A DNA stretch of 64,000 bases. Origin: Fistulifera solaris (Eukaryota). The notes under the pieces were generated by a model, which made no database searches, had not been told where the DNA came from, and saw only the letters and a program-made list of their open reading frames with translations. A program made the position numbers and the translations under genes. Positions 15,950 through 52,834 of this stretch are shown in pieces (the first letter of the stretch is position 1; every line of letters begins with the position of its first letter). The stretch covers positions 1,364,001 through 1,428,000 of the forward strand of contig AP026162.1 in NCBI GenBank assembly GCA_030295235.1, written 5' to 3'.

Positions 15950-16240
15950 TTGATTCGTGACTCCTCCTCACATGCAATCATGAAAAAGGTCGCCTACTCT
16001 TGGAACTAGAGCAAAATGATAGGGCAATATTTCGGAAGGATCTACGAAAAAATTATCGATTAGTGCATGACAAGTACTGCTGAAGGTCAATGCATATTGT
16101 GAAAGACAATAAAAGATAATCGAGCCAGCAGAATCGATGAAATTCAAACAGATGTCTTGCCTTGAAAAATAATGACCCATGACTGAAAGGCAGTCGTGGT
16201 AAAATATAAAATTAACACCTTTAGCCCCAAAAAGACTACT
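15950..16240 (+). repeat. ~220-bp palindrome-anchored dispersed repeat, locus A
   Basis: Anchors ttgattcgtgact..tgcaatcatg (G at 15959, degenerate) and catgactgaaaggcagtcgtgg (G at 16181) are 222 bp apart. Confidence 0.6.
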
Positions 16241-16465
16241 CCGTATATGTTTAGCCACAATCCAAGACACGTTTTTTACAGGATCTCGCTTTGCGAGCTA
16301 GTTCAAAAAAGTATATTTGAAACACGAGAAAGGACAATATGATTATGATGCATGGAAAACGTAAGATTAGGCCGCGTCGTTCAAAACACTGTTTACATAG
16401 CATCGACCGTGCCGATTCAAAAACTGTAGCTCGTTCCGCATCAGCACATTGTTCACAAAAGCAAA

Positions 16466-17417
16466 TTACAGCTCTTCCGTCTGCAATTGGGATTTGGAGT
16501 CTGATGAAAAGTATGTAACGAACGGGAAAACTTTCTTCAAAAAGACCACTGTTTGCGAAAAATCGAAAAGATCTGATTTCCCCAAAGCCTTGGCATACTG
16601 TTTGCAATCAGGTTCCCCAAGAAGAAAGGTTTCTCCCATACTAAATGGGGCGTAGTGCGTGCACATTTGGTCGTCGACACTGCAAGTAGTAATGACCACC
16701 GCAGGGGTACCTTCACCGGATTGTTCTACACGTTGACGCAGCGCCGGAATAATTCTCCAGGTTAACATCAAAGCGGAAATAAATCCATCGGTGAAAGGAA
16801 ACTGAATAACAGCAGCTTTGGTTCTTGGAAGAACCTCTGTTTCATATTTGATCTTTGGCCACAATTCCGCCGCGCTCAACTCAATGAAATCCTCATCCGT
16901 GTATTCATGAATATCAAAATTTTTACTGAGCAACTGCTTGCTTCGATCGTCTTCTTCAACTGCGAGAAGACCAGCGGCGAAACGCTGCTGACGTCCGCCC
17001 ATGACTATGCGGGGGTCGTCGAAGTAAATGGTGTAAACGACGTCGGCATGTTGCTTCTTCTCGACCCCTCCTTCTTTTGCTATGAAACGAGCGAGTCCCT
17101 GGGACGCTGCGTAATCTCTTTGGTGCGCTTAAAGACGAACGAACCACCTGGGAATTCTCCTTCTTCGATTTCGATGCTTGTGAAGCCGCCGGATGTGGTA
17201 AAAGAATACAGAAAACAAACGGCCATCACGAGGCAAATGACAAGGAACTACGAGCTGTGATGAGAACTTTCAATAGACTATCAGATTGTCTTCTCCGAGG
17301 GGCTTACCTGCTTTCGTCTTTGCTGGAAAGAGAAGGAAGGAATATGGTGAGCTGAACTGTTGCCAAGCAGCCGAGTCAACGATCAGTACTTACCGGTGAG
17401 TTTCGCGGCTCATTCAT
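16466..17417 (-). CDS. TEX264-like protein (N-terminal TM anchor plus GyrI-like domain), 3 exons
   Basis: Spliced product: MNEPRNSP|QRRKQ|FLVICLVMAVCFLYSFTTSGGFTSIEIEEGEFPGG...YTIYFDDPRIVMGGRQQRFAAGLL...AVIQFPFTDGFISALMLTWRIIPAL...TEEL*. One A is missing at about 17120. Confidence 0.7.
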
Positions 17418-17786
17418 TGTGAGTTCATGATAATTCATAAACATATTGGTATCGGTAGACGCTTTGGTGCACAGCTATTAAAAAGGGACTTGCTTTACCA
17501 CTTTACAATTATGAAGAAGTGATGAGGTTGATCAACAAGTTTGAAATAATAATGAGAAAGAGAAGCATTTGCCTCCGTTTCTGTTTTTCCTTTCTTCCGC
17601 ACCTTTGCAACCGCGAAAACAATAACGCAAAACATCACAAAAATCGGATGAGAAAGAAAATATCGCAACGGTTTAAATGCTTGTTATAGTAATCAGCGCT
17701 ACGACATCATTTAGTTTCATCGAACTAGTGTTAGTAACTAATGACAACTAATACAAGATTGCTCATCTGAAACACACACGTAAATT

Positions 17787-20700
17787 CTAGCCATAGAAAG
17801 CTTTTAACGTATACTCGGTTGCACTGGCCAGGATGGGCACTCCAAACCATGTAATGACTCCAGCTCCAAGAACGATAGAAACGATTTTGGCATATGCCGC
17901 AGCAGTCGAATCTGGACCATTGATGTAAGGTGCATTGTGATCCGTCTCCCTGTTAAGAAGTGCCGGCTTAGCAGTTGGTTGTCCGACAGGTGCTTCCGTA
18001 AAAAGCTGGACCTCGGACTACAAAGAGAACAAAATGAGACTAGAGACAATCAATGAGCACAAGGTTCGCAAAACGAATACTCACTCTAGGAATCATGTCC
18101 CCTTCTAGATGCTGACCTGGCACACGCGTCTTCTTGTATCCAACTTCTTCCATGGCTAGCTCGGAAAGGGATCGCGGGTCGGGTTTATACGGCGTTGCCG
18201 AGGATTCAGGAAGAGGGTGGTCACGATATCTATCTTCCTTCAGCACTGGTATTCGAATGACGAATTTGCCAAACATGTACTTCTTCATCGCCTTCAGTTT
18301 GTTCGCATTTTCTCGCTTAATTCGGGCCAGTTGAAGAGCTTTAGTGTGCCTCAAAAATCGTTTCGCTTTGTTGATCTTCTGCTGCCTCTTTTCTTCTTCC
18401 TCAGATAAAGGTTCCTTACTAACAACATAGATGTCGACGAGTTTCATCCAGGGACCAAATAGCGCCCAAACAATAATTCTTGATATCCACTTGATCACAA
18501 AGAACCAGGGAACAAAGAAGAATACAATTGAAAGTAAGCAACAGCCTACCGTGACCCAGAACGAAATGTAACATTCTTCCCATAACACGATATATTTTAT
18601 TGTCCTGAAGTATCGAATGACCAAAGCTAGATTTCGCTGCACAGGATACAAAATCGGCTTGAATGGATCAATGGAAACGCCATTTGACTTCGTACTAATG
18701 TCAGCAACATCCTCACCAATCTCCTCCATCTCGCGCTCGTATTCCTCTCTTTCTTTCATTGCCTCTTCGTATTGCTTGGCCACCTTTTCTTCCGCTGTCT
18801 TGATACGATTTGTCCAGGCCTCGAGAAAAGCCTGAGTTTCCTCACTATTCTGGAACGGCTCAATCGAATGAGGAGGGAAAGACGTTCGTCCTGTAACGAG
18901 AATTTCAACTAGTTCTACGAAGGACTTGCATTGCATCCAGACATCAGGAAGACTACGTCGATAGACATTGGTTGCTATCATGAACCAAGCCAAACATCCA
19001 AAGATGAAACTCGGCAATAGTTGTGGGTGCTCGACCAGCATTGTAGCCATCACGAAGGCAGTCATTGAATGAATTGGAACGTTTACGGTGGTGGTTCCAA
19101 ACGTCAACGGGAGAGACCCACGCCATAGCATGAGATTCGTGACTGCATCGTTAAGATAGAACATAGCTTGTTTCTGACTTGATAGCAACTCTTCAACATA
19201 CCTATAACAACACGTGAGGATGTATCGTGTATCGTTCAAGAACAAGTAAAGCAAAGAGTACTCACGAGTTGATCACTTTAATATTGTATCTCTCCGTGTC
19301 GAACTTTCCGACGCAAGTATACCGGAGAACACGGAAGTCTCGTCGGGCTTTTGTATTGACGAAAAGGTGCGGCGGTGGCTCCAAATTTGAAAGCAAAACT
19401 TTTCTCTCGTCGAAAATCTCCAATCGTAAACGAATCGTTATGCTACCTTTAGGCTTTCGACTCGACATTTTCGCACTGGAATACAAGTTGTACTTCAAAT
19501 CGTAAACTGTGTCCCTTCGCAGATTCGAAACGTCGACGGACACTCGTCCGATGGGATCGTGGTCATCCGCTGGGTTCATCCCCGCATCATTATCAAAGAC
19601 GCCGATAAAAAGTTGACTGCTACTGTGAAACACGTGGAAGACAAATGCGCGCTGACTCCAGGGCATCCATCTGGGGTTCAAGCAATCAGCAATGACATCC
19701 GTCTGGCATACTGCATCTTCGAACACCAGAGAAACGAATGCGTCGGTGAAATTACCAGCCAATCCTCCAACATCCATTTGAGGCAAATCATCACAGCCAA
19801 TAACCTCAACAAAAAGACGACCCAGTGTGCCGCTACCAGCATCAATCCAGTTGTGTGAGGGCCTTTGACTTTCGAGAAGAATTTCATCATGAGTCATCCA
19901 CGTAGTCTCGTCTGGACGAAGTGGATCTGGCCCTGGTCGGATTTTATACTGTCGCCAAACATAGTGAGCATCTTCTTGAAAGCCGAAACAATGTAAGGAT
20001 AGTGAGGGCGACTTACCTGTTTCTTTCCGGCGTTCTTTCCTGAGGCAACAACACGAGTCCTTTTCGATAGAATGGCTTTGAGACTACCAGCCCCAGTCTT
20101 CCCTTCCAAAACGGCTTTATGAAGAAAATCCAAATGCTTAGATTTCGGCACACGACTTTCTTCCATGAATTGGATGTCACTTGGACTAGCTCTGCGACAA
20201 CGGATCGCCATGTACCCGGATACGTCTCGGCTTCTGTAGCCAGGGGACTGAAGCTTAAACTCCATGCGTTCGCCGTTTGCTTCGTACAGTGTTTTCGCAG
20301 GTACAGTGACAACGCCCAACTTTTCATTTCCACCAAGCTTATCGAAGTCTTTGAGAATAAAGACTAGTCCATCGCTAGTAAACAACTCTTGCGAGCTGAC
20401 AGTGAAAAGGAATAGAGAATCGGTCTTGATCGTCCAAATCGGATCGAGACTGCAAAGGGTTCAAAAGACAGTTAGTTAGAACAATGTGTATTTTACATCG
20501 ATTAAAGATGAAGAACTCACGTTTTGGAGATATGCTTCGTTCTGTGAACCTCGGCACCATTGAAAGTAACTTGGACATAGGGGTCTGACGATACGAGGTC
20601 ACCCACAGGAATATCCCACGCCGAAACAATTTCGAGCAGCAACGTAATTTTGTCTTTCATATTGATCGTAGCTCCACCGAGTGCGGCTTGCATCCGAGCT

Positions 20701-24841: not shown

Positions 24842-25079
24842 AGCCAAAAGTATGAGTAGCTTATAATGTTTAATACTTTTTTACCACACTTAAGCAAAAA
24901 ACGACATCAGTCCCGTTTGATAATGCTGTGTAAAAAGCCCAAAGTTTGAGTAGCTTATAATGTATAATACTTTTTTACCACACTTAAGCGAAAAACGACA
25001 TCAGTCCCGTGTGTTAACTGTTGTGTAAAAAACGGGTCCGCGATAACTTGAACCCTATTGAAAAACGACTTTGAGTAGC
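24842..25079. repeat. Tandem duplication of a ~94-bp AT-rich unit plus a partial third copy
   Basis: tgagtagcttataatgt.taatacttttt(t)accacacttaagc.aaaaacgacatcagtcccgt occurs twice, and tttgagtagc recurs at 25070. Confidence 0.9.
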
Positions 25080-29996: not shown

Positions 29997-30094
29997 ACAA
30001 TTGGTATCGGCAGACGATGCGAACGTTGCTAAAAACTATTTTACGACCGATTCATCGCAGGCAGCCGCGTGTTCTAATGCTAAAGACTATTCTT

Positions 30095-30460
30095 ATAACA
30101 AAACGACGAATAAAGCTCAAGAAATGGGGCGAACGGACGAATTGTAGGTAACATTGTCAGTCTTTATTGGTCGCTCGAAAAGAATTTGATTCATGACTAA
30201 AATGCAGCAGTGGCGAAATCCGGACAACACTTTGGGTCCATAGTCAAATACGCCGACAACGTTTCGCAGGCTTTTCGACGCAAAAAATCAAAGGCGTCTA
30301 ATACAAACGCGTTAGAAAATTTGGATTGCAATAGCGACAAATGGAGATCTAATTCGTTTCGGCGAACGGACGATTTGTAGGCAGTATTGTCGCTCAAACA
30401 TTTGATTCATGACTGAAATTGCAGTCGTGGAAAGATGAGGTTACATTATGGACCACACTC
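30095..30460 (+). repeat. ~220-bp palindrome-anchored dispersed repeat, locus B
   Basis: tttgattcatgactaaaatgcagcagtgg (G 30195) and tttgattcatgactgaaattgcagtcgtgg (G 30411) are 216 bp apart. Both are preceded by ggcgaacggacga.ttgtagg. Confidence 0.85.
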
Positions 30461-38177: not shown

Positions 38178-39359
38178 CTATTCAAAATAGCACTCTTCCG
38201 AGGAATCATGCCAAATACAACTGAGCGTCGGAGAATCCATGATCGAAAGATCATCTTCATACTCTTGTGTAACTTCCATGCATCGTGCGGCAAAACTCTT
38301 CAAGATGTCGACGTCGTCGTTCAATGAAGGTGGTTCATCAAAGCTCCTCGAACGAAGCGGGCCAATACCGCTGTCTCGGAGCATCTTGAGAATGAGTTCG
38401 GGAGAAGGTCTTCCGAAGAAAATTTGTTGTTCAATTGGCAACCAGGCGAAGCTAAAGTACTCTTGGCCAATGATAATGAGCTGTCCGTCCATCATTTGAC
38501 TATTTTTGAACCCTTCTTCAGCTACTTGTCCTAGTCCACTGTATCTTGGGAGCTGACTTGTTCCCCATCGGCGAGCAGCTTTGTCGGTGAGTTTGATGGG
38601 GTCTAGCTTTGCCTGTTCACCCGAAAAATCAAAACCTTTACCGCTCTTGTGTTGAGTTCCTCCCGCAGCCGTTTTGAAGATCTTCAACGGATCGAGGTCA
38701 ACTTTGAAGGTAAGTTCGCCTCGCGGAACGTTTCGGTCACCCGTGACCTTCTCTGCAATCAATGTATCATCCACATAGGTCACATTGATCAATTCATAGC
38801 CATGTGTTCCGTACTTTCCGACCCAAAGACCTTCTAAATTGAACTGCGGCAAACAACTGCGGGCTACTGTCGCCCGCTCCTGATGCAACGCTGCATCCTC
38901 CATTCTGTTTTCCGCCAGAGCATCGCGACATGCTACTTTCTCCAACATGTACACCAGCTCCGGATCTTTTTGTTCCACCTCGCGTAGCTTATTGCGTGTC
39001 TTTCGTTCTTCGCTCTCTTTGCCTTGAGTCATCGCGTCGACCAAATAAGACGACAACCGTTCCATCTCCGATCGCAAATCCCAAAGTTCGTCACCAAATG
39101 TCACAAACTGAGATCTCTTTTCGTTATCAATTTCCATCCTTCGACGGCGGATTTCATTTTGTGGCAATGGTTCTAGCTCGGAGAATTCCTTGTGGCGACG
39201 TGAATACTCCTCCGGTCCTCGGGCGACTTCGGAAGCGAGAGGAGCGAGTCTCGACTGGCTGCTTACCGAACGTAAAGCAAAGGGAAGATTCGAAAAGGCG
39301 GAAGCAACAGTAACATAGGATATGACAACTGAAACTAGGATATTCCTTGAGAAAGCCAT
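38178..39359 (-). CDS. Plastid-targeted EXECUTER-like protein (UVR-like helices plus DUF3506/Cyclin_D1_bind domain), paralogue 1
   Basis: Signal peptide ending VASA-F, then 'LEGLWVGKYGTHGYELINV..LIAEKVTGDRNVPRGELTF' and 'YSGLGQVAEEGF..DGQL..FSFAW'. Confidence 0.8.
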   Translation of the reverse strand: MAFSRNILVSVVISYVTVASAFSNLPFALRSVSSQSRLAPLASEVARGPEEYSRRHKEFSELEPLPQNEIRRRRMEIDNEKRSQFVTFGDELWDLRSEMERLSSYLVDAMTQGKESEERKTRNKLREVEQKDPELVYMLEKVACRDALAENRMEDAALHQERATVARSCLPQFNLEGLWVGKYGTHGYELINVTYVDDTLIAEKVTGDRNVPRGELTFKVDLDPLKIFKTAAGGTQHKSGKGFDFSGEQAKLDPIKLTDKAARRWGTSQLPRYSGLGQVAEEGFKNSQMMDGQLIIIGQEYFSFAWLPIEQQIFFGRPSPELILKMLRDSGIGPLRSRSFDEPPSLNDDVDILKSFAARCMEVTQEYEDDLSIMDSPTLSCIWHDSSEECYFE

Positions 39360-40206
39360 GGTTGTTGTGATGAACGATCCGTTTGTTCTGTCGCCGAACC
39401 AGAATTTTGTGAGAAAGGGTGGAGAAACGGAGCCAAAAGTTGCCCCGCTTCGCGCCCTTTTCCGCTCACGTCGTTGTCAACGATGTCAAAGGGTTGTCTT
39501 CGTGAATGACGTAGACCAAAAACTGCGATTACTATGTGACACAAAGTAGTATCCGAAAGCCCAAACTGGTCGTACTTCACCTTGCGTCATCGCAGATTTC
39601 TCTCCCGGACTACAAATAAAGCCTATACTACAGATGAAGTTTCTATTGTGACGAATGTCGTACCACTTTTGAGAGACTCGCTTATAACAAAGCATAAGTA
39701 AAGAAACAGGACTCATCTATTTTTTTGTCCCGTTTCTGCGGACGGCGCTCAATGACGTCATTGTGCCTGTAATTCTTCCTTGAGGTTGGAGATCGCGACT
39801 GACTCATTTTCCGGGACCCGTCTACAATGTGTCACAGCCAACCATGCGACCGCGCCGAACGGGGTGTCAAACGGAAAAAATCGCTGCTGTCGTCGCACTT
39901 TTTGTGAACCGGCAGAAACGCGCCACGTGAGTGGATTGGATTCTCACTCCTTGCATCTCTCCGACATTCAAACCAACTGATCTTTCTCCGCCTGACATTT
40001 TTCGGAGGTCCAACGAACTCTTTCAAGTACTTGTGGTGCATCAATCCGTTCGGCAAACGTTCACAGCAGCAACAAGTGCTTCTACGTTTTCTAGCACCTC
40101 CGCCACCTCCCGATATTTGCTAACAAGCGGTGGGCAGCCAAGCTTTGTGCTTTCGCGGTGAGGTCATTTGAGTTTTTTTTTCTAAAATAAGGAGTGTCTT
40201 TCGACC

Positions 40207-41283
40207 ATGCGAACTGCAACCTTGTTTGTTTGTATCACCGCAATCGTCCACGAAACGGCTGCCTTTACCCACCCAAGTCTTCTGCGGCATTCGTTGCTTC
40301 ATAAAGCAGCGTCCTTCAACGCACATTCCGAGGAGTCGTCGTCCGATCCATCGGCTTTTCACGGCATCTCTTCGCACGAGTTGCGACACATGAAAGAAGC
40401 CAAAGTACGCAAAAGCGAGTCACACCAAACCTCCAAGTCATTTGTGTCCGGTGATGACCTGCAGAGCTTGCGCCGCGAAGTTCTTAGTCTCAACCAAGAG
40501 CGCCAGAAACTCTTAACTGCCAACCGCGATCCACATCGGGTGGCCGAGTTGGAGCAAGCGATATGGCAAGCCCAACAAGTGGACGCCGAATATGTATATT
40601 ACATTTCTCAGTTGCGGGCGGAAAAAGCCGAAGAGGAAGGTGACTTGAAACGAGCGCAGCAGCACCGCAAACAAGCCAAACGAGCTCGCTCGGAACTTCC
40701 GCAATTCAACCTAGATGGACTCTGGGTAGGAAGATACGGAAATCACGGATTTGAAATGATTAATATTACGTACGCGGGTGATACGATGATTGCTTACAAA
40801 GTCACCGACAACGACAACGTTCCTTCGGGTGAAGTCTCTTTCACGGTCGATCTCAGTCCCAACCCCAAGACGATTCACGGCGAAACACCGTTGCTTGAAC
40901 CGATTGAATTGAATCATGATGCGGCGGAACAATGGGGCTTAAAGTACTTGCCTCGTTTTACTGGTCGCGGACAAGTAGCTCGGAAAGGGTTCCGCAACGC
41001 ACAGTGGGTAGAAGGTCAGCTTATCTTGGTCAACAAGTATTTCAGTTTCGCCTGGCTCCCCATCGGTCATCAAGTATTCTTCGGTAGACCTTCGGCCGAA
41101 CTCACACTCAAGATGCTTCGTGAATCGCGATCGAAACGATTTGCGGATGAGAGCTCACGCGCCTTTTTGACACGTTGTTGGGAAGAGACCGCCTATATTG
41201 AAGACGACATGGATGTTACCGACGGAATATTCAAATCGCATGATCAGTCGTTTTATTATGACCAAGCCGGGTGTTTCGAGTAA
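40207..41283 (+). CDS. Plastid-targeted EXECUTER-like protein (DUF3506/Cyclin_D1_bind), paralogue 2
   Basis: Signal peptide ending TAA-F, then 'LDGLWVGRYGNHGFEMINI..MIAYKVTDNDNVPSGEVSF' and 'FTGRGQVARKGF..EGQL..FSFAWLP'. Collinear with paralogue 1. Confidence 0.8.
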   Translation: MRTATLFVCITAIVHETAAFTHPSLLRHSLLHKAASFNAHSEESSSDPSAFHGISSHELRHMKEAKVRKSESHQTSKSFVSGDDLQSLRREVLSLNQERQKLLTANRDPHRVAELEQAIWQAQQVDAEYVYYISQLRAEKAEEEGDLKRAQQHRKQAKRARSELPQFNLDGLWVGRYGNHGFEMINITYAGDTMIAYKVTDNDNVPSGEVSFTVDLSPNPKTIHGETPLLEPIELNHDAAEQWGLKYLPRFTGRGQVARKGFRNAQWVEGQLILVNKYFSFAWLPIGHQVFFGRPSAELTLKMLRESRSKRFADESSRAFLTRCWEETAYIEDDMDVTDGIFKSHDQSFYYDQAGCFE

Positions 41284-41744
41284 CGCTCTTTGTTGGACGG
41301 TCGATTGCGAAGACACTCGAGCTTACCTCAATGCTTTCGAATCGTCTTTGACATTCTCCACCGCTCCTGTGAAATCTCATGTAAACCACTTCTGTACACT
41401 ATTGTTTTCTCAAATATTCACAACACATCACAAGAATACTGACAAATGATAATTCGATAAATATTAGATTTTCGATTATGTGAAACGTATTTGGTTCAAT
41501 GGCTTTTCGAGGTCGCGAGAGATAGTTCGTGTCATTGTTCAATCGATCTAGCCTCTACACCAATTTCGCCTACGGTGTACTTTATCTTTGTCGAAAGATG
41601 ATGACTAGTCTAGAGAGATGAGAGATGTAGGCACTAGTCTAATTAAAAAAATGCCACTATTACTTCCGCTGAAAAGCTGAGTGCAAGGTAAGGTAAACCT
41701 CCTTCGGCAGAAAATCTGTAGAATTTAAAACAAGTCCACAGAAT

Positions 41745-42260
41745 TTCTGAGTAAACTGCATCTCTACGAGCAGGAAATCTGAGTGTCTTACCTGTGAAAT
41801 GAGCATGGATTGAGCAGAGGAAATCAAGTAAAGGCGACGACGAAAGTGACATCACAAAATTGCAATTGGTGCTTTAGAATTGTCGCATTGTGATAAAGGC
41901 AATAAAAGGCTTCGAATTTAGTCGATCTGAACGGGCTCAGGTGGCACACCGCCCCTCGGAAAATTTTTACTCGTGATTAAGTTGCAGTCGTGTCGAATGT
42001 CGCCTTCACTTTGGCTTTATAGTGGTTAAGGAAGGCAGCGACCCACGCCGCAATTTTCTACATAGAAAATCGAGGCGCGCCTTGCAAATGCTGCGAAAAG
42101 AGTTGAATTGTGTTGAAAAACAAATTAGCTCAACATGTTTGCAGAGTGAAAGGAGGTAGAAGGTAGCAGCTGGAATCGAAAGATTGATAATTCATGACTG
42201 AAATGCAGTCCCGATAAACTTGATTTTTTTAACACTTAGCGGCTACAGTAAATTTGACGA
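41745..42260 (+). repeat. ~220-bp palindrome-anchored dispersed repeat, locus C
   Basis: Anchors tgagtaaactgcatc (G 41749, degenerate), tcgtgattaagttgcagtcgtg (G 41975) and ttcatgactgaaatgcagtc (G 42196), spaced 226 and 221 bp. The 41975-42196 interval is homologous to locus D. Confidence 0.75.
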
Positions 42261-42401
42261 CAACGATTTTTAACCGCGGTCTCCTTTTCGTTGCTACTAC
42301 GATGACCCTGCAAATGTTATTAGTACGTACCTGGTACAACTCATTCATCCAGCAATAAATATTCGATTTACGAAACAATAGTGCGCAAACGGCGACATAC
42401 C

Positions 42402-42755
42402 ATGAGCTCCAGTGAAAAGTCGCAATCGGAAGCTTCGAGTATTAACGATGAAACTGTGAACGAACCGACCGACGACGTCGGCGTCGAATTTTGCTACGAC
42501 GAAAAGGAAGACCCAATGTTTCAACCCACAGAAGAGGACGTGGAACGTATACAAAATAAATTATTAGAGGCTTTAAATGCGGAACATCAAATGCTTGAAA
42601 GACAAAATCAACTTTACGAAGAACAGCGAGATCTGAAAATAGCCATCGAGCGCGCAGAAACTGACACAAGGCTTCTAGCACTTCAGAAAACGAAGGAGCT
42701 TCTCAAGTCTCGGTTGGAAGAGTTTGAGCCGAGAACTGAGAGTTCTCTCGGTTAG
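42402..42755 (+). CDS. Small hypothetical coiled-coil protein
   Basis: ATG at 42402, acidic N-terminus and heptad-rich C-terminal half. Confidence 0.55.
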   Translation: MSSSEKSQSEASSINDETVNEPTDDVGVEFCYDEKEDPMFQPTEEDVERIQNKLLEALNAEHQMLERQNQLYEEQRDLKIAIERAETDTRLLALQKTKELLKSRLEEFEPRTESSLG

Positions 42756-43341
42756 CTACCACCAGATTACTAGCGACAACTGTTGTGCACGAAACGCTAA
42801 GCTAGATTTACTCAAGAATGACTGAGTAAAGCGCGCGATCCTTTTCGCATACGATTGATTCAAAAGTTTCTCCACTGGTCGGACCTTTGAACTTTGAGAT
42901 CAAATTACCTTATAGAGCTTTGCCACTCGCCTTTTTGTGTCAGCTCATGTCGGCATTCAGAAGGTGCCAAAGCGAGGTTTGTGCTTCGTGACAAAGGACT
43001 TTGACAATTCTTGAAAAGACTAGTTACACTAGCTACGATTTTCATTCTATGTTGCCTTAAAAATTAAACTTCGTGCGATACCTCTAGTTTATGGTCTATG
43101 AAAACTACAAGCAATTTTGTCCAAAAGACGATGCGATAACCATTAGTACAAATGGACAAGTAAGATAACCTAGGATAGGCGTCTGCACAACCGTCCGGCT
43201 TTAACAATAAGCAATTGCCAAAAAGGGGGAGCATGTTCATTGCACTGGATATCGGATCTACAAACTATGCATATAAACAGATTGAACATTTGCAAAAATA
43301 TCGTTCTGTAAAGGCCATACGGGCTTTTATCGACGAAAGCG

Positions 43342-43956
43342 ATGAAATCGGCTGCAATAATGATGCTCAACGTTGTGATACTCGTCATGTTGTCGCTCCT
43401 TCATCAGAGTCAATGCTTTGTAGGGCGTTTATCATTTTCCAGACTCACAGCCACACAACAACGGATGCCTAGTCCGCTACAGAAAGGACCAAGACTAGCT
43501 CTTCTGGACAAAAATGCTACGGACACCGACGAATTCGAGTTTAACGTCGCGGATTTTTTCGGCATCGCTGTGGGTGCGCAGCTTTTAGGTCTTCAGGATG
43601 TTTTAGGCGAACCAAGTTTTTGGAAGGATGGAGGGTGGTTTCAACCTGTTACGATTGAATCCGGAGGCTCTGTTCTATCTGAGCTAGTACAGCGTTTCTC
43701 TGTCATGTGTTCAGTATTTCTTGGTGCTTCATGGATCCTTGGGTCTCCAAAAGCGTTACCCGACAACATTAGTATCCTCAGCTTTGCAATCAAAACTGCG
43801 ACCATATATGGGATGATTCGGCTTCTTCTCGAGCTTTTCACAGCTACAATGTTGAACGGAGAGTTTAGTTTATCGCAGACTTTGCGTGAGACCTATATGA
43901 TTGGCCTGGCTATTGCTACCACAAGATACATCTTGAGCAATTATATCTATCGATGA
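43342..43956 (+). CDS. Hypothetical membrane protein, probably plastid-targeted
   Basis: Signal peptide ending SQC-F, an S/R/T-rich transit-like region, then 3-4 hydrophobic helices. Confidence 0.6.
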   Translation: MKSAAIMMLNVVILVMLSLLHQSQCFVGRLSFSRLTATQQRMPSPLQKGPRLALLDKNATDTDEFEFNVADFFGIAVGAQLLGLQDVLGEPSFWKDGGWFQPVTIESGGSVLSELVQRFSVMCSVFLGASWILGSPKALPDNISILSFAIKTATIYGMIRLLLELFTATMLNGEFSLSQTLRETYMIGLAIATTRYILSNYIYR

Positions 43957-44384
43957 ATACGAGATTGATACTGTATTTCAAGTCGTTGATCAGTGTTTGC
44001 TCATGGTTTTCTAGTTACTGCGATTAATTGCCTATCAATGCCACCTTAGTTTTCCGGCAACCGCCCCAACCTTGCTTTTGTACTGCACTTATAAAAAACA
44101 AAAAGATACGTAGAACTAGGGTAATAAATAACGGTACGATAGGAATACTTAGGAGAATCACGAGGAACCGCGAGATAAATCTTCAATTATTTACGGTTTT
44201 GCGATAGCGTGCACCTCTAAACATATCCTAAATATTCAGTACCAGATCAAAAATACTTAGATGGATTCCAAGATCTTCCATCTCCGAAAACTCCACCCCG
44301 CATTTCTTTCTGTCCATTATTTCCCAAACAACATTTGCTGCAAGTTTTCGGGTCGATTTGACAAAACACCTTACTCAAGCAATC

Positions 44385-45728
44385 ATGTCATCTCGTATAG
44401 AAAGAATGAGGGATAGTCATGGCAATGAGATAGAAGAAATCGAAAAAAGGTTGAGAATTTTGCGATTACGGGCGCGTTTTGCAGCCGCAAGAGATCGGGC
44501 AAACAAACTAGTAGATCATGGTGACTCGAATAGAACTCACTCGAAAGCCCACAATGAATCTCGGAAGTCGTATCGTGATCACGATCATCGACCCCAAATA
44601 AACCGACAGCCAAGAGCCTTTGAATCAAGAGGGGGCATCTTGGACACTGGCTTGTGCGCCCTTCCTTATCATGGGTTTGCCATGCGATTGTTCGGATCCG
44701 AAAGTGAGGATGATGAGTATTTGTTCAGCGACGATGATAATAGCATTCTAGATGAGGATCGGAGTGACGAAGACGATGAAATAATGTCTCGTATTCTTAT
44801 CCCATCTTCGATCCGCCATGTTGCTCCTATCCATCAGACTGGTCGGCGTTACGTCACTCCATCTTCTCTACAAGCTACTTTCCCCAATGTAGAAGATGTA
44901 AAAAAGAACTCTTCGCAAAAGAAAGCTGTTTTATCTAAGAATGCGCATCATGAATCATTCAATCCTCCGCCGGTGCTACGTCAAGACTTGACGTGTACTT
45001 CGACGATTTCCAGTCATCCCCAGTCCTCGAAAACTAAAAACCACGAGCACTCGTCTTCATCCATTAAGACAAGTGATACGAAGAAAACTTGGTTAAGTCG
45101 TCTCAAGTGCCAGTCTCACGCTGACAAAGATGACATCTGGATCCCTAAAAATATCCCCCACATTCCCCTGGAACACGACATTCATAATTGGAATGTTGGA
45201 CATTCGCGTCAACCAGATAAGTCGAATGTCCTTCGAAGTAAGACCTGGAATCAAGATGACTCAAGCACGATTGCTACTTATCCAAGCATCGAGGTGAAAC
45301 AACCGAAACCAATGAGACGGACAAGACCGGAATCAGAAAACCCATCAACCCCTTCTCACGTTCAGTCACCTTTTGACGGATCTTCTTACGAAAATGCGAC
45401 CCCATTGGCGCACTCTCGTATTAAACCCAATCGATCGGTATCAACAGGGCGCTCGCGATCTTTGAATAGTTCGTCGGGGAGTGGGGTCCGTCCATTGACT
45501 ACTCCGAAACAAGGTTTGCCACGTGTCGGAACAGAACATTCGCGCAAGTCGACTAGCTCGTCGAAGAGCAGAAGCAAGACGAAAATGGTTTCAAAGCCCT
45601 TATCAATTGATCTGAAGCTGTCCGCCTCTGACGACAGTGCTGATCCCTATGAAACTATCCAGTATTTCCGGACACCTTATGGACAGCTTAAAATGGGGAC
45701 GGGGACAATACCACCATCGTGGTGGTAG
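44385..45728 (+). CDS. Hypothetical S/R/D-rich disordered protein
   Basis: Uninterrupted ORF of about 447 codons with no recognisable domain. Confidence 0.55.
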   Translation: MSSRIERMRDSHGNEIEEIEKRLRILRLRARFAAARDRANKLVDHGDSNRTHSKAHNESRKSYRDHDHRPQINRQPRAFESRGGILDTGLCALPYHGFAMRLFGSESEDDEYLFSDDDNSILDEDRSDEDDEIMSRILIPSSIRHVAPIHQTGRRYVTPSSLQATFPNVEDVKKNSSQKKAVLSKNAHHESFNPPPVLRQDLTCTSTISSHPQSSKTKNHEHSSSSIKTSDTKKTWLSRLKCQSHADKDDIWIPKNIPHIPLEHDIHNWNVGHSRQPDKSNVLRSKTWNQDDSSTIATYPSIEVKQPKPMRRTRPESENPSTPSHVQSPFDGSSYENATPLAHSRIKPNRSVSTGRSRSLNSSSGSGVRPLTTPKQGLPRVGTEHSRKSTSSSKSRSKTKMVSKPLSIDLKLSASDDSADPYETIQYFRTPYGQLKMGTGTIPPSWW

Positions 45729-46058
45729 ATCAATTTGCATAAAAATTTTAATAATTGTTGTAATTGTCATTTGTCCACATGCTGCTCCTTTTCTTGACTG
45801 ATGTTTATCACCAGAGCTGAATCCGTCAGCGTTGGTTAGCGTTAGCCTTTCCATCTTTCAAATTCGGATTTCAGATTCTGTTTGGCGATAACAAGACGTT
45901 TTACACAATAGATTTTGTGACAGCATTCGTTAAGTAGAAACCGAGCGTTGGGCGTTGTGTGGAGTCACATTTTTTAGAAGTGTTTTTCGTTTTCTGTTCC
46001 ACTTGCAGCCGATGGAGTGCATGTTCCTTTCCACATGAACTTTTACTGAAACATCAGC

Positions 46059-48291
46059 ATGATTGACGAAGATGGAAACAATTTGCCCTGGGATTCACTG
46101 TGGGAGTACTTTCTCGGCGACGAGGAACTTGATTCTGTTCCACCGAGGGGTAGTATTGTTTCACGACGCCGACAGAACGTCCGATTGCATGATACCCAGA
46201 TGCAACTCAATTCTCCAGCAAATACTCGTGGCCGATCTACTTCTAGAGTAACCAAGCCTTCCCAATCCAGTGAGTTTGAATGTCAAGCAAAAATGCTGAA
46301 CGTGCACAGTGTGACTTCCGCAAAAGCATCACACCGTAGTAACGCTCGGAATGACTCAAGAAACAATCATCTACTCGCAGATACCAAATGTAACAATAAA
46401 ACCGAATGGGACATGCGAGATGAAAAAGACAACGAGCAGCTTGCAACCTCTCAACAATGTACAAAACCGACGAGCGGCGTCACTGATGCAATACGAAAGA
46501 AAGATGAACGAGATAGAAACACGGAAGGAAAATTCTCCCAAGTTTCTCATGTCCAAGCATCGCTAGATAAAGTTAATGCTTCATCTGCTAATGAAAATTC
46601 TCCAGCTCGAGTTATTCGACTGCAGTATACTCCACAAAGACGCCTATTGACGGAAAATCACAAAATGACGGAAGCAGGGGAAGGCCATCTAAGTACAGAC
46701 GTTTCTTCGTCGCAAAGTACGAATGCTTTTTCTAACGTCGGAAGTAAGATTGGTTACCCAGTGGTGGTTCAGCCGAGAAACCGAAGTCGAAGTGAAGCGG
46801 ACACTTTAGACCCTTTCATTCAAGCCGAAAGCAGCACAGAACGAATAGTTGCCCAGTGTTTTGCGAGTGCTACCAGTCGTAAGGGTGCTACACAGCGTGG
46901 TGCTTGCCGTTCGATTAGGAATCTATCTGAATTGGAGAGAATATTGTCGATGAAAGCCGGTATTCCTATTTATCAGCTTTCACGCGATGAGTTAATTGAG
47001 ATGTTTCCAAAACTTGTGGCTGTCGCAGACAAAAGAGTCGAGGTAGTTGGACGCTCTTCTGAATTCCAGAGTTCTATTCCTGCTCACCTGCAGGCATCTC
47101 TCGGAAATCAAGGCGAACCGCAATTACTCTATGAATACAATTATGAGTCCGAAGAGCACAAGTTTGTCTCGTACAGATCTTTCAGTGCTTCGCCACTGGC
47201 TTCCATGCACGTCGAAACTAGGAAACTCGACAGATCGCCGTCGGTTGGGACAATTGATGTCTTGATCCAAGTGGAGGTACGAATGCGTACAACGCTTATA
47301 ATGTGCACTTACTTCTGAGCTAACCATCCTGTTTCAGGCGTCCACCGTGTCTCCGACCGACTGTTTCATCCGGCAAGGAAGATGCCCGAGTCATATATCT
47401 GTCCCGTTACCCAATACCCCAGGAGTTGACGCGGTTGGAAAAATATATCGCATCGATAAGCGTTCATCTCAAAGATACAAGCTAGTAGCCGGAGATCGAG
47501 TGATGTCGCTGGTAAAGTGGGGAGGGAATGCAAGGTATCTGCAAATCGATCCGACCAAAGCAGTAAAAATACCAGATACAGTAGACCCTGTTTCTGCCGT
47601 TTGTCTGACAGAGACGTATGTTGCCGCATACCAAATTCTTTTCATGGTATCGTGGGAGCTAAACGCCGAAAAAAAAGCTCGCTAGCAGGGAGAACGTATA
47701 TGCTTTCCGGATCGATTGATCCCAAACTTGCACGCGCGATTGCAGCGATCGCGAAGTATGGTGGAGTCAAGGCCATTTACGCCAGTGCTAAATGCAAGTA
47801 CAACCGATACTTTCAAAAAATAGGCATAATCCCATACGACCAGGAGAGTGATGAACTGACAGCAGCCATGGAAGGAAAATTCGATCGCGTAGTACTGTTT
47901 CATCAAGACGTTTCAAAATCTCATTTCGATCTTTTGAAGAAGGACGGGGACATAATAGTTGTTTGGGGGATAGGGGGCGCATCGAAGCCCCATGAACCTT
48001 CGAAATTGCAGCCAAATATTTTCTGCAGTAGACATAAATCGCAACACCACGGAAAAGTTTACAATTATGATGTTTTTGAAGAATGGGCGGAACGAAATGA
48101 GCAGTGCAAATCTGATCTTTCGTTCCTCGTAGGTCTTCTGGTTAAAGGTATCATTGCTCCACATATCCATCATCGCATTTCTCTGCGTCAAGTGGGCGAA
48201 GGCCCAAGAAATGCTTGAATCAAAGCATTTCTCCGGATTTATTGTTTGCGAACCGTGGCTCGTTTCAAAATCGAAAGCACTCCGTCTTTAG
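46059..48291 (+). CDS. MDR-family (GroES-like, quinone oxidoreductase-like) protein with a long disordered N-terminus
   Basis: 'DVLIQVE|ASTVSPTDCFIRQG..PLPNTPGVDAVG..GDRVMSL..GGNARY..KIPDTVDPVSA', and C-terminal '..LVKGIIAPHI..ISLRQV..GFIVCEPW'. Intron at about 47277-47337; frameshifts at about 47640 and 48200. Confidence 0.78.
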
Positions 48292-48328
48292 CGGTATAGT
48301 AGTATTCTAGCAGTGTAATCTAATCAAT

Positions 48329-50761
48329 TTATTGATCCTGGCAATTGTCCAGTACGACTTGTTTCATTACTCGATAAGGAGCACTCCTTCCTGTCCATAA
48401 TTCGAACTGACCGACTCCTTGTTCCCAAAGCATTTCCGAGCCACGCACGAAACTGCAACCAGTTGCCTCGGCCTGCCTCAGTAGTTCTGTGTAGTATGGC
48501 TTGTAATTAACATCAAAAATAACTGGTTTATCCCCATCAAGCGGCAACAACCAAGGAGGCAAGACAAACTCCGCAGCAGCTGGAAGCGTACTGATCACAA
48601 CCCTAACATTACTTCCTGGTGTCTTTCGCAGGATATCGCCAAGACAAATGCCTTCTTGCAAAGACTGCTCGTCAAGGGATGTGACGACTGTCCCACCGAA
48701 CGACTCAACAAGATCTTGAGCTTTTGATGGAGTGCGATTGAAATATATGCATTGCAGACCAAGTTTCCTCGCCACGTATGCCGCAGCACGGGCGGTCCCA
48801 CCTGCGCCCAATATTAAAGCGTAGTCCAAAGAGTGATCAACTTTACTGCCCAAGAGTCGATTCAGAGGATTGTATATTCCTCGCCAATCAGTGTTATCTC
48901 CGTAGATCACTCTCTTGAAATCATCGTCAACATATTCCTCTTTGGCAATAATAGTATTCACACTCCCGATAGCTTTCGCTGCTTCGCTCATCACATCAAC
49001 GTACGGAATAATTGCTTGCTTATGAGGAATAGTAACACTCGTTCCTCCAAACAAACTCGACTTGAAGAAGTCTGACTGGACGAAATCTTCAACAGTTGGA
49101 ACATCTACCCTGACGTATTGATGAGGCAGTTTTGTTGCAGCGAAAGCAGCTCCATGCATTTGTGGACTGACCGAGTACGCAATGTTATGTCCCAAAATGG
49201 CGTACGTCTTCTTTTCAAATATATTCGTGAGCAGTCTCGTCGTCATGATTTCATTGGAAGTCATCTGTCCTGGAGCTGCTTTAAAAGGAAGCGATTCATG
49301 CGTGACCGGTGTAAAGGGAAAGTTAATTACTCGCGAGAACTGGCCAACATCACCAAGAACGAGCGAAATATGAGGAATTACTGGTTTTCCATCTTGTTCC
49401 GCTAGTTCGGCCGCAATCAATGCCGCTTCGTACGCCATTCGATCCCGCGATTCGTCTGTGATCGATAAAACAACCTTGGCTCCATGGGCCCTTCCATTAA
49501 GAGCACATTTTTGGAAAAATAAAACCGCCTCTTCCGTTGAGACTTCTTTCCCGACAACATGATGGCTGCCCAGAATCTGACTCGAATAACGCTCCTCTGC
49601 CCTATCCAGTAGATTGCTCGTTTTTTGCGAGTCCCATGCGCTTTCCACGTCCAGGACCTCCACACCACCACGTAAACCCCACTGAAGCAACTGGAACATC
49701 GACTCAATTCCCTTTTCATCGTCGGGGTACGTGCCAGCCTGATTGGCGGTACGAACTGTGTAAACAATGGGCATGCAATCTTCTATGACAGAACCCACAA
49801 ACGGCAGCGCAGGACTTCGTCGGGTATGAGGACGGCAGTATCGACGCAATTCTTGCATCCCGTACAGGAGATCGAATCGGCTGTCGCGACAATCTAGCAA
49901 ATCGGTTCGGTATTCCATGGCATCGACATCGGCGCACATGCTTTCTACGAATTGTTCCACTTGTGAAATTTCCGGAAAGCTCAAGCTCAGAAAGAACGTG
50001 TGATCTCCCATGGTAAGGTGTGCCGTGTTGGCTGTTCTTGTTTTGTCGCCCGGAATGGGAGGTATCAGTCGTGCTCGCGCGAGCAATCGAATCATTTCCC
50101 ATTCGATATGCTCCCACGATGATGTCGTATCCTGCTCGTCTTGGGTGCCTTCGTCGCGGATACAAAGCTCATAATCCGAATTCGGCACCAAGACACTTTC
50201 TTCTATTTTTTCTTTGAGTGCTGTAGCTTCCTCGCTCATTTCACTGCTGGAGGGTTCGACATTCACGTAAATAGCCAAATGCCCGCTCTCGTAGAATGCT
50301 TTCACTAAATCCGATAATTCAGCTTGCGTCAGTTGATTGGATTCTTTGCCGGATTGAAGTTGTCGGAAATCAATAACAGCAATATCAGGCCAATGAGACT
50401 GTTCAAAAATGTCTTGAATGGGCCGTAGATTACCAGTATCATCCATCAATGGAAGCAACTGACTCGTTTTCAATTGCGTTTTCATCAAATAGTTTGCGAG
50501 TCGGTTCAATTCGTTCCCCTTCTCCGAAGACATGCCGATGAGAACAATCGGCTTGTCGTATTCGTGAAACATATTTTTACCAGTGAACATTGTAGTTTTA
50601 GCATCGGTAGCCATCGTTTGCGAGGATGCTAGCGAAAAACATGTCTCGGACGTTGTTGTGTGTCGACCCGATGTGAAACGACTACCCGCGCTCAAGAAAG
50701 CCGATGAGATCGTCGTGAACCAGCATAACAAAAGATATGCGAAGCGATGAACCGAATTCAT
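48329..50761 (-). CDS. Plastid-targeted 3-dehydroquinate dehydratase (type I)-shikimate dehydrogenase fusion with a degenerate N-terminal shikimate-kinase-like region
   Basis: ISSA-F presequence. DHQase: '[10 protein letters not shown]', '[10 protein letters not shown]', 'SHH', 'AAPGQM'. SDH: 'SVSPQMH', 'SVTIPHK', 'GSVNT', 'GDNTDW', '[10 protein letters not shown]', 'NRT', 'QFELWTG'. Confidence 0.92.
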
Positions 50762-51149
50762 CGTTTATTTCGAAACGAAACGAAAATAAAGGCCAAGTTT
50801 TGTGTAAAAAAGTAAGAAGCGATTGATTGAATGGATCGCACATCGGAGGCATCACACAAATCTCTTGTGTCATACGTCACATCATCAACTCGTCGCGAGT
50901 CACGAACCTGTTCGAGATGGCTAAAGGCTAAAACTACTGCATAGAACATGGAGCCTAACCTATTTCATCACAAGAATAATAAAGTGAAACATCAGCAAAA
51001 ATAGAGCAGTGACAATATGCTCAATTGGTGGCTATCTAACCAGCGGTTCGTTGCTCGTTCCACTTCGCAAACATTCAACGATGAAACGACAATCGACGTT
51101 CACAATGAAACAATAGTTGATGCATCATTTTAATATTTGCTGATAAAAT

Positions 51150-51495
51150 CTATGCATCTACATTCTCGGTTGACAATCCCTTGAATGTGGAAACTTCTAC
51201 AAGTTGGGCAAGGGTGTACAACTTTTCATCGGCATCCTCATCTTCGTTGCGCTTTCGGCTCAATCGCACTCGAACACGGGTTGGTACGTTCTTTACACCA
51301 GACTTCCAAACAAATTTATTCAAAGCGGCATCAATTCGTACATCCGAAGTTCCCATAGCTTTTTTGCGCAAAGGCACGAATTTCCTTCATGGCGCGAGGA
51401 GCGCGGCGTTTGAATTGCAACTTGTGTACGCGCTTCGACAAGTGAATAGTGTAGTCTCGTGTAACGAGATCTGGTTTGGGGGCGCCTTTGACCAT
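51150..51495 (-). CDS. RPL31: 60S ribosomal protein L31 (eL31)
   Basis: [86 protein letters not shown]. One-nt indel in the T run at about 51360. Confidence 0.95.
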
Positions 51496-51879
51496 GATAA
51501 ATACTGTGAATTAAATAAAGATTACTGTGAAGACCGGCGAAGGGGACAGAAAAGTGAGCAAAATTTTAATTTGGCCGAACAAAGACTTCCGTTACAAACT
51601 ATTGCGTTCCCCAGCTACAATCGACAATCGTACACAGAACCAAACTCCGATACATCATTCATTCGCTATGAGCTCACATGCCTTACCTTGAACGTTTGCA
51701 AGGATAATCCTGCCGCGACAGCGAGTTGAGACGAACTGTTGCAATCTCTCCGAGGTTTTGGTGTTGTTGCTCCGTTTATTATTTGTAGTAAAGCGGTAAA
51801 TAATCATCCTTATCTCTAAACGAAAGCTACTCTCACTATGAAGTAACATGATGTATGATGTACTCTGTAGGGGACTGAC

Positions 51880-52834
51880 TAAGGCTCATGACTAAAATGC
51901 AGTCGTGACAAAAAACGAATGACACTCTTTGAGGCCATAGTACATACTAGCGATAGCGACACGAGGCTGTCCGGCATCGTTACATCAGATGTGCATGCAA
52001 AATGCTTAATTTCGAAAAATATTCGCTATGTTTTAGAAAGCAAATGTTTCTCAACAAGCTTGGAGAAAGAGCGAAAAGTTCGGTAGCAGTCGTCTGGCCC
52101 ATTTTTTGATTCATGACTAAAAATGCAGTCGTGGTAACGACGATTTCACACTTTGGGTGTATAGTACTCCGAGTAAAAATATCCAAGATTCATTCATGAT
52201 TGCTAACGATCCCCAAAGCTTGTTCACGCAATGAATCACTGTAGCATCACCTTTAATGCCATAACATTTGAGCATTGACTTAATGCTTGCTTTTGTGGAC
52301 TTCATCGTTGCCGTTTCATTTGCATTTCGTATTTGACTGAAATTCAGTCAATGAGGGCGTATACGAACAGCAATAGTGAATCTGCCGTCACCGATCCGAA
52401 AGCTTTTCGGAGTTCGGAGCCAAGAAACGATACATTGCGTTTAAATGATGATGATATTTCGTAGCATCACTGTCGTTGCCACCACATATGACCGTTCATG
52501 TTGCCTTTTTATTTGCTTTTTCTTACGTCGATCGTGACTGGATTTCAGTCAAGGAGGGCGTAAACCAACACTTTGCTACTATAGTGAATGTGCCAGTCAC
52601 CAATCCGAAAGCTTTTCGGAGTTCGGAGCCAAGAAACGATACATTGCGTTTAAATGATGATGATATTTCGTAGCATCACTGTCGTTGCCACCACATATGA
52701 CCGTTCATGTTGCCTTTTTATTTTTTTTATTTGCTTTTTGTACGTCGATCGTGACTGGATTTCAGTCAAGGAGGGCGTAAACCAACACTTTGCTACTATA
52801 GTGAATCTGCCGTCACCGATCCGAAAGCTTTTCG
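51880..52834 (+). repeat. ~220-bp palindrome-anchored repeat, locus D (5 anchors; the last ~2.4 units are near-identical)
   Basis: Anchor G positions 51890, 52115, 52335, 52536 and 52753 (spacing 225/220/201/217). 52335-52834 is a near-perfect tandem duplication. Confidence 0.9.

Follow-up and report, generated by a model that had tools for sequence, protein, structure and literature searches.

In a 64-kb window of the Fistulifera solaris genome (the whole stretch of DNA that was analysed), four intergenic arrays were identified, comprising ten clear and two weak units, all on the plus strand. Each unit consists of a module of about 60 bp, in which an imperfect palindrome is followed after a variable gap by a second box, and of a linker of 149-164 bp; the module is conserved and recurs about every 220 bp within arrays. 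With somewhat less than even confidence, these features point to a DNA module that may be bound by a host protein and repeated one nucleosome apart, possibly as an origin or chromatin signal. A small mobile element is nearly as likely as such a host-protein-binding signal.

Array A starts with a weak module, A1 (15950-16013), which carries a 6-nt insertion in the palindrome spacer and has its box 2 at 15996. It is followed by a 158-bp linker (16014-16171), assigned, like all linkers below, to one of two types by linker comparison, here type I, and by module A2 (16172-16232; nhmmer, profile and core pattern), in which palindrome 1 is strong (TGACT at 16180) and box 2 is decayed. In array B, module B1 (30186-30244; nhmmer and profile) contains palindrome 1 (TGACT at 30194) and box 2, and is separated by a 157-bp type-I linker (30245-30401) from B2 (30402-30460; profile), where a strong palindrome 1 (30410) and a decayed box 2 lie about 180 bp upstream of the start codon of an LTV1-like gene. 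Since a type-I-like linker (30020-30185; z 10.5 to the next linker, and z 4.7-4.9) precedes B1, this first clear module, array B does not start at a palindrome. Array C comprises a highly degenerate and uncertain module C1 (41740-41800), C2 (41966-42023; nhmmer and profile) with TGATT at 41974 and a clear box 2, a 163-bp type-I linker (42024-42186) and C3 (42187-42249; profile and contigs) with its anchor at 42195. Array D opens with D1 (51881-51941; anchor 51889, profile), about 380 bp upstream of the minus-strand gene RPL31, and continues with a 164-bp type-I linker (51942-52105), D2 (52106-52165; anchor 52114, nhmmer and profile) and a 160-bp type-II linker of an older form (52166-52325). 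The young units D3-D5 (52326-52834; anchors 52334, 52535 and 52752) belong to a multi-copy subfamily, are 97-99% alike over their common parts and include two linkers of type II, which measure 149 and 158 bp. Array D has no sharp 3' end, as a decayed type-II linker (52835-52885; local alignment of D52752 with D52114) runs past its last module.

The twelve anchors named in an earlier sequence-only reading were all found in place, its numbers marking the G of TGACT, and 10 of the 12 are strong. A bipartite profile scored its 10 training units at 21-57 bits, compared to a maximum of 19.5 in 30 shuffled windows; on the minus strand of the window it detected no copy independent of these. The core pattern occurred at 7 distinct sites (10 matches when both palindrome strands are counted), where 0.13 were expected. 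In a leave-one-array-out nhmmer search, from whose training the tested array was excluded, the anchors at 30194, 30410, 41974, 42195, 51889 and 52114 were regained at E 1e-6 to 1e-15, and those at 16180 (E 2e-4), 52535 (0.005), 52752 (0.04) and 15958 (0.057, in A1) more weakly. In total, 10 of 12 anchors were regained at E<0.06; the two not regained were 41748, in C1, and 52334. A weak minus-strand site at 4223 (11.7) was dropped because its score lay in the shuffle range and it is located inside an ABC-transporter ORF. Two further places, at about 29986 and 52862, may hold decayed anchors; these were noticed only by eye and are left out of the counts.

Palindrome 1 is imperfect, spans 21-23 bp and has the form TCATGACT-RAAATGC-AGTCGTGG; it is followed by 16-21 free bases and then by the 18-bp box 2. 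Among 18 pairs of old units from different arrays, identity was 0.76 in the left arm, 0.81 in the spacer and 0.78 in the right arm, 0.70 in box 2a and 0.49 in box 2b, against 0.27-0.41 in gaps and flanks. While the anchors had been picked by sequence, box 2 played no part in unit picking, and it recurs in the loose-end consensus of the contigs from elsewhere that join the 42195 anchor (10 in contig set X1 and 11 in X2). Of the 10 strong units, 7 have a clear box 2, the second palindrome reported earlier, with 11-14 of its 14 defined letters; it is decayed at 16180 and 30410, and 7 nt shorter at 52334. The third palindrome is intact in no units other than the three young ones of array D (about 52395, 52604 and 52820). 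The conservation is one of sequence, including the palindrome spacer, and not of pairing. The proposed structural constraint, taken in the RNA sense, was not supported: conservation is as high in the loop as in the arms, only 1 of 125 cells is compensatory, and no fold convincingly beats its shuffles.

The linkers fall into two types, I and II, which showed no similarity in any of eight cross comparisons (z -1.6 to 0.6) and are nevertheless near-equal in length (157-164 bp for type I, 158-160 bp for type II), with an AT content of 55-61%. Together with the contrast between boxes and gaps, this bears out the notion that palindromes and unit length are kept better than the rest of the unit. The linker homology that had been noted between arrays is real but weak: type-I linkers from the four arrays gave z 2.6-4.7 in all six pairs, a value of 2.6 being reached by 7 of 312 unrelated comparisons. 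Successive periods measured 222, 216, 226, 221, 225, 220, 201 and 217 bp. The SD of six periods was 3.6-3.7 bp, excluding the 201-bp period (a 7-nt loss in box 2 and a 149-bp linker). Simulated neutral indels, at rates that were assumed, gave median SDs of 7-29 bp; P ranged from 0.26 to <0.001 and was under 0.05 for 6 of the 9 settings. However, 7 nt at 52406 are missing from other young-subfamily copies in the contigs, so that linker length is held more loosely than the old arrays imply.

The arrays are separated by 14.0, 11.3 and 9.7 kb, and the window ends, its first 15.9 kb and last 11.2 kb, are free of arrays. This spacing is even (CV 0.16; reached in 40 out of 1820 ways of choosing four gaps, or with a probability of 0.021 if placement is uniform, evaluated post hoc). 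The arrays had been described as lying on the plus strand whatever the orientation of flanking genes; all four indeed do, but only array A is situated between minus-strand genes, and one shared strand for four arrays has a chance probability of 1/8. Observed in one 64-kb window, neither the common strand (P=1/8) nor the regular spacing (P~0.02, post hoc) is more than suggestive.

Contig data show that the family is dispersed, that it includes a young multi-copy subfamily, and that arrays turn over between the subgenomes. Contig sets X4 and X5, which covered 5 and 7 of 30 bins, respectively, were left out. An exact look-up of three proteins gave no match. Near-identical copies occur elsewhere, because the summed contig depth over parts of array D (187-353, a sum and not a copy number) far exceeds the depth of about 19 of single-copy contigs in X1. 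One X1 contig of single-copy depth aligned over at least 152 nt, including D1 if these lie left of the joint, and resumed at 53041 or beyond; it is probably the homoeologous locus, which would have retained D1. Among the X1 matches listed, the presumed homoeologous contig of array C skips 41461-42339 and that of array D skips 51999-53041, indicating that most units are absent or less than 80% alike at these sites. Outside the species, the core pattern gave no matches in viral contigs, prokaryote genomes or plasmids, and the viral contigs contained no related locus. Matches at 41 metagenome loci were taken as chance, as they were restricted to the core (best 17.6 bits, without extension into box 2) and displayed no blastn similarity to the window.

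A partial relative of the module has been published for the same species. Maeda et al. (bioRxiv 10.1101/2021.11.10.468027) report, in the part of the preprint available, centromere/ARS consensus motifs on 43 of 44 F. solaris chromosomes, stacked in narrow regions and also placed at intervals; they were derived from low-GC regions and yet occur outside such peaks as well. Fragments free of these motifs yielded no episome colonies in an assay that its authors call "preliminary" (bioRxiv 10.1101/2021.11.10.468027). When the window-unit profile was compared with the motifs as given there, motif 3 matched the right half of palindrome 1 at 15.4 bits, within the range of true units (10.6-17.5) and reached by none of 2000 shuffles. 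Reversed motif 1 carried CAGTCG, a 19-nt gap and a weak box 2 (1 of 2000 shuffles; 5 of 4000 random 49-mers), and motif 2 gave nothing. Box 2 alone was not significant in the motifs as available (333 of 2000 shuffles), and their left arm is missing (an equally good score arose in 1984 of 2000 shuffles). This kinship test was post hoc, built after the likeness had been seen by eye, and involved 24 comparisons. None of motifs 1, 2 and 3, in the form available and taken end to end, had a strong ungapped match in the 64-kb window, and no low-GC, centromere-like peak was present there (no 3-kb stretch had more than 3 low-GC windows, and the arrays had none). Motifs 1 and 3, as far as the available text describes them, resemble the module in being non-coding, stacked and recurrent at intervals on nearly all chromosomes, and appear to share with it the word AAAT(T/G)CAGTCG and, with identical spacing, a weak match to box 2. 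In contrast to the module, they lack the left palindrome arm, and the available text is silent on palindromes, a 220-bp period and orientation. The module thus appears partly related to two of these motifs, with the right half and the box spacing, not the left arm, in common.

The earlier view of an undescribed non-coding family is supported as regards the boxes and the unit length, and the family had no Rfam or tRNA match, but the view must be qualified by this published relative. No description of the ~220-bp unit was found in the literature searched, although the motif map in Fig. S5 and the centromere sequences of Maeda et al. could show the same arrays. Nothing matching appeared in the accessible portions of the mitochondrial repeat section of that preprint, the Nitzschia sing1 report (PMC11960938) or the Phaeodactylum repeat annotation (PMC5859163).

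Among the candidates proposed earlier, origin or boundary sites with near-nucleosomal spacing fit best; a rolling-circle element may also apply, though its characteristic ends were not found, and a non-coding RNA or SINE is unlikely. A unit may represent a two-part asymmetric site on double-stranded DNA, the palindrome having a shape typical of the site of a dimeric protein. The linkers have kept their length and not their sequence, and may thereby provide space for one nucleosome core between protein-bound modules, since about 150-165 bp would accommodate the 147 bp of a core. The young multi-copy subfamily shows that units spread and are replaced through tandem duplication and through copying between loci; selection would retain roughly one array per 10-14 kb. 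The likeliest job would be that of a positioned, protein-bound chromatin site in replication initiation or chromosome organisation, a role suggested by the partial kinship with F. solaris motifs that the preprint ties to episome maintenance. To our knowledge, no origin or centromere consensus is established in diatoms, and ORC ChIP yielded no consensus for origin sequences in Phaeodactylum. Should the fragmentary F. solaris motifs prove to be parts of this module as their full form, there would be a defined 60-bp element and a rule for its spacing, open to cloning, mutation and tests on episomes and to mapping for polarity on the 44-chromosome assembly of this industrial oil-producing diatom. 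The motif-spacer-motif point centromeres of budding yeasts, as outlined in the accessible part of PMC12925627, are an architectural analogy without implied homology, with kept protein-binding boxes around a spacer that varies in sequence but holds its length within a genome. They differ in occurring once per chromosome, compared to one array per ~12 kb here, and in the 70% AT filter applied to CDEII, compared to 55-61% in our linkers (PMC12925627). An extended version of the host-protein reading, which we consider unlikely, would be a directional, chromosome-wide signal: nucleosome-spaced asymmetric arrays every ~12 kb, co-oriented per arm and flipping near the centromere, would set origins or guide a motor, the published motifs being an AT-rich centromeric variant. 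No polarised, motif-based chromosome architecture of a eukaryote was found in the literature searched.

A serious, if tentative, competitor is a non-autonomous mobile element that is long-lived and serves the host in no way, and in which the boxes would be cis-sites required by the mobiliser, so that only box-intact lineages would keep copying. Rows would form by insertion beside older copies, through a rolling-circle (Helentron/HINE-like) route or Crypton-like integration of small circles. The single ancestor shared by the type-I linkers of all four arrays, the near-identical copies elsewhere and the seeming absence of young units from the homoeologous site argue for such an element. However, defined termini are lacking, with homology extending upstream of the first B anchor and beyond the last D module. 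Canonical Helitrons have a 5' TC and a 3' CTRR shortly after a hairpin; in the units, the sole constant CTRR sits inside palindrome 1, and neither strand has one at a constant place behind it (5' TC was inspected by eye only). The units have no common subterminal inverted repeat, as no 11-bp inverted pairs recurred between them in a test for the 12-15-bp subTIRs of Helentrons/HINEs, and the anchors are in direct orientation. Like Helentron/HINE (DINE-1-like) elements, as described in the available part of PMC4067079, the units are short, non-coding, palindromic and T-rich before the first palindrome, some with tandem repeats; unlike these, they have neither an inverted subTIR pair nor defined ends. 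Helentrons/HINEs carry a short palindrome 8-35 bp from a defined 3' end, whereas the units have palindromes but no such end; they insert into TT, which an empty site would reveal, and the contig joints skip the arrays. With its 8-7-8 layout and asymmetric spacer, the palindrome could serve a tyrosine recombinase on a Crypton-like route, but its arms are shorter than those of recombinase sites (two 11-13-bp arms around 6-8 bp). CryptonS of oomycetes and Phaeodactylum likewise lack TIRs, and differ, according to the available part of PMC3212892, in their recombinase gene and a constant 5-6-bp terminal repeat, mostly TATGG. In the window, TATGG was in register in just 2 of 10 units, the crossover words GAAGAC/ATCTTC in none of 10, and no tyrosine recombinase gene was present among 30 ORFs scanned. 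A mobile element alone would also leave the even array spacing, the common strand and the equal length of unrelated linkers unexplained. If correct, it would represent an unclassified, still-copying family without recognisable ends, of moderate interest.

Rather improbable are promoter or enhancer modules, in which clustered transcription-factor sites would regulate the neighbouring gene. Every array is located upstream of at least one gene start (an ERGIC-type gene, the LTV1-like gene, an unnamed ORF at 42404 and RPL31), none occupies a convergent gap, and box 2 opens with a TATA-like word on the minus strand; in this compact genome, however, most gaps lie upstream of some gene regardless. 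Moreover, orientation is independent of the gene, array A facing away from its gene and B and C towards theirs, the distance from array to ATG varies from about 150 to 500 bp, and homology spans entire 220-bp units rather than the boxes alone. Very doubtful is the view that the units are neutral remnants of a dispersed satellite whose box conservation is an artefact of copy picking: the genome has other palindrome-bearing tandem repeats, the anchors were chosen by sequence and some units are decayed, but box 2 and its fixed gap, unused in picking, persist across unalignable gaps and in independent contigs, and the two unrelated linkers are equal in length. Least probable are structured non-coding RNA genes or a SINE, despite departures from Watson-Crick pairing in palindrome 1 that are mostly G-T on the plus strand (though mainly at two inherited positions) and what we take, by eye, to be a near B-box word in the young linker, as neither covariation (0.140 versus 0.153 shuffled; 327 of 500) nor folding (z -1.7 to +1.4 in all 12 folds) gave a signal, the loop is conserved as much as the stems, and Rfam, at the gathering threshold only, and tRNA searches returned no match. 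A scan of the window for bacterial promoters and terminators, irrelevant here, stayed at chance level, and CpG was undepleted in the arrays (1.23 versus 1.13).

All twelve anchors of the ~220-bp repeat noted in the sequence-only reading were confirmed (array A, 15958/16180; B, 30194/30410; C, 41748/41974/42195; D, 51889/52114/52334/52535/52752), as were the regular spacing, with measured periods of 201-226 bp, and the common plus-strand orientation, no independent minus-strand copy scoring above the shuffle range with a bipartite profile in the window. Ten strong anchors reached 21-57 bits with this profile, which was trained on the same ten units, compared to a best value of 19.5 in 30 shuffled windows. 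Under leave-one-array-out training, 10/12 units were recovered at E<0.06, with 15958 and 52752 being marginal, and 41748 and 52334 were not recovered.

The window is gene-dense and eukaryotic with about 46% GC, and includes a gene for a shikimate-pathway protein (48329-50764) whose product shares 96% identity with a database protein named as F. solaris, the second-best hit reaching 90%. All four arrays were located in non-coding gaps, occupying 4 of the window's 16 gaps that measure 400 bp or more: array A is flanked by two minus-strand genes, B and C by plus-strand genes, and D lies in a divergent gap adjoining RPL31. The inter-array spacing was even (CV 0.16; 40/1820 gap choices, determined post hoc for four arrays in the window), and a common strand for all four has a chance P=1/8; that the arrays constitute a polar chromosome-wide signal appears unlikely. 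An identical 13-letter word, seen by eye and possibly due to chance, occurs just upstream of array C (41608-41620) and just downstream of array D (52910-52922). Possible further decayed anchors, also seen by eye, lie at ~52862 and ~29986, the latter within the final codons of the upstream ORF and 208 bp before the first module of array B.

Each unit consists of a 58-61-bp module and a linker. The module starts with palindrome 1 (8-bp arms flanking a 7-bp asymmetric spacer), followed by 16-21 free bases and box 2, ACACTTTGG-n4-ATAGT. In between-array comparisons of 18 pairs of old units, the identity within palindrome 1 was 0.76 for the left arm, 0.81 for the spacer and 0.78 for the right arm, and that within box 2 was 0.70 (2a), 0.39 (middle) and 0.49 (2b), compared to 0.41 and 0.27 in the gap and 0.30 in the flanks. 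The palindromes had been described as better kept than the remaining unit, which holds for palindrome 1 and box 2a; a third palindrome was intact only in the three young units (52334, 52535, 52752). As the spacer of palindrome 1 is conserved to the same degree as its arms, only 1/125 cells was compensatory, the covariation score was at the level of shuffles (327/500) and none of 12 RNA folds had a z below -1.7, the constraint acts on double-stranded sequence and not on an RNA fold. A multi-hairpin ncRNA, one of the candidates proposed earlier, is very improbable by the same covariation and folding results. In arrays A and B, the last module combines a strong palindrome with a decayed box 2; in A and C, the palindrome of the first module is decayed. 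The stretch under constraint may extend from box 2 across the linker as far as the palindrome that follows. An extra A at 52120, in the second module of array D, is possibly an assembly error.

Six complete linkers measured 157, 158, 158, 160, 163 and 164 bp and a seventh, after 52334, 149 bp; that after 41748 could not be delimited. Linkers of one type (A, B, C and the first of D) displayed weak mutual homology (z 2.6-4.7 in 6/6 pairs), against a background in which 7/312 unrelated comparisons reached 2.6, with a top value of 4.8. The two linkers of the second type gave z 3.2. The intervening DNA previously regarded as homologous between loci is so, weakly, within a type, but 8/8 cross-type pairs gave no signal; partial downstream segments showed some cross-type similarity near the third palindrome, with z values reaching 3.9. 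The similar length of linkers that cannot be aligned suggests selection on spacing. Simulating indels at assumed rates, with the 201-bp period omitted, gave P<0.05 for the spread of periods in 6/9 settings, but in aligned contigs other young copies lack 7 nt of the linker.

The preprint text describes F. solaris as an allopolyploid that carries two subgenomes and has 44 chromosomes (bioRxiv 10.1101/2021.11.10.468027). Contigs of two sequencing runs, X1 (possibly the window's own source, and not independent) and X2, were aligned to window 39000-54500 at an 80% likeness threshold in 30 bins. Each run covered 30/30 bins, intergenic DNA included, with one near-identical and one diverged contig set, which we interpret as the two subgenomes. 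X2, labelled a wetland metagenome, apparently has the same allopolyploid make-up at ~1-3% divergence. At anchor 42195, at least 10 (X1) and at least 11 (X2) contigs run on into other sequence, and their consensus shows a word resembling box 2 at the matching distance; overall agreement was only 59-63%. The module is therefore dispersed through the genome, and copies not chosen beforehand also conserve box 2. Summed contig depth, which is not a copy number, was 319 at 52120, 353 at 52306 and 187 at 52406, compared to 11-25 for single contigs, indicating that near-identical copies of parts of array D exist elsewhere. Array C lies within the stretch matched by one X2 contig (40965-42452), which has 27 differing letters and 26 gap letters. 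An X1 contig of depth 18.2 skips 41461-42339, including array C, and X1 joints with a depth of 16.4, which probably belong to one contig, leave out 51505-51618 as well as 51999-53041, and at least 152 letters align on either side of the second stretch; joints skipping these stretches were not seen among the X2 matches listed. If the skipping contigs represent homoeologous loci, the first module of array D would be kept in both subgenomes, and the remainder of array D, like the whole of array C, would be absent or less than 80% alike there.

For the units, the analysis showed conserved boxes, an internal gap of fixed size, linkers of similar length, descent from a common source and recent copying, and it gave no sign of RNA structure. 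We tentatively favor, at somewhat below an even chance, a protein-bound, nucleosome-spaced module: a protein dimer would bind palindrome 1 with a second contact on box 2, one nucleosome would be accommodated between modules, and the arrays would serve replication initiation or chromosome organisation. A non-autonomous mobile element is a somewhat less likely rival, and the two readings are not mutually exclusive. A role in regulating genes is distinctly unlikely, and a neutral satellite very unlikely. Helitron ends carry CTRR, and such ends were not found in the units. In contrast to HINEs, described as requiring inverted subterminal repeats and defined ends (PMC4067079), neither was found in the window units; homology continues upstream of the first anchor in array B and past the last module in array D, so that no termini could be drawn. 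The short terminal repeat outlined for CryptonS, mostly TATGG (PMC3212892), was in register in only 2/10 units. A recombinase-driven mini-circle is a live rival as the source of the units.

The preprint text of Maeda et al. (bioRxiv 10.1101/2021.11.10.468027) reports three motifs derived from centromere candidates; the motifs occur on 43/44 chromosomes, where they are both stacked within narrow regions and found at intervals. In the same text, 7/11 vectors surpassed the control in colony number, and two fragments lacking the motifs yielded no colonies. No end-to-end match to these motifs was found in the 64-kb window. In gapped comparisons with the units, reversed motif 1 beat 993/1000 shuffles and 300/300 random window sets, motif 3 was borderline in both orientations, and motif 2 gave nothing. 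With an in-register profile built from the window units, in a test designed after the likeness was seen, the right half of palindrome 1 was found in motif 3 (0/2000 shuffles as good), and reversed motif 1 contained CAGTCG, 19 nt and a weak box 2 (1/2000 shuffles, 5/4000 random 49-mers); both results share CAGTCG. Box 2 alone was not significant against the motifs, and the left arm of palindrome 1 is absent from them. By sequence likeness, the motifs are probably relatives of the module and not the same element. For Phaeodactylum, the available literature text reports that no origin consensus was found. Our literature search turned up no account of the unit, of its period or of its orientation; the supplements and journal version of Maeda et al., outside this search, may bear on the point.

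Beside array D, the RPL31 gene (51146-51506, minus strand) is split over two frames, an assembly error since X1 and X2 contigs both lack one base at 51360. Divergent paralogous genes at 38178-39476 (minus) and 40186-41283 (plus) carry a Pfam Cyclin_D1_bind domain and are 76% alike over 103 nt. The window further contains a 34-bp tandem ladder of a family distinct from the module (6017-6252; ~7 copies, 78% matches), an AT-rich, intergenic 94-bp tandem dimer (24842-25031; 91% matches) and a 371-bp tandem array with palindromes inside (59170-60494; 3.6 copies, 97% matches).
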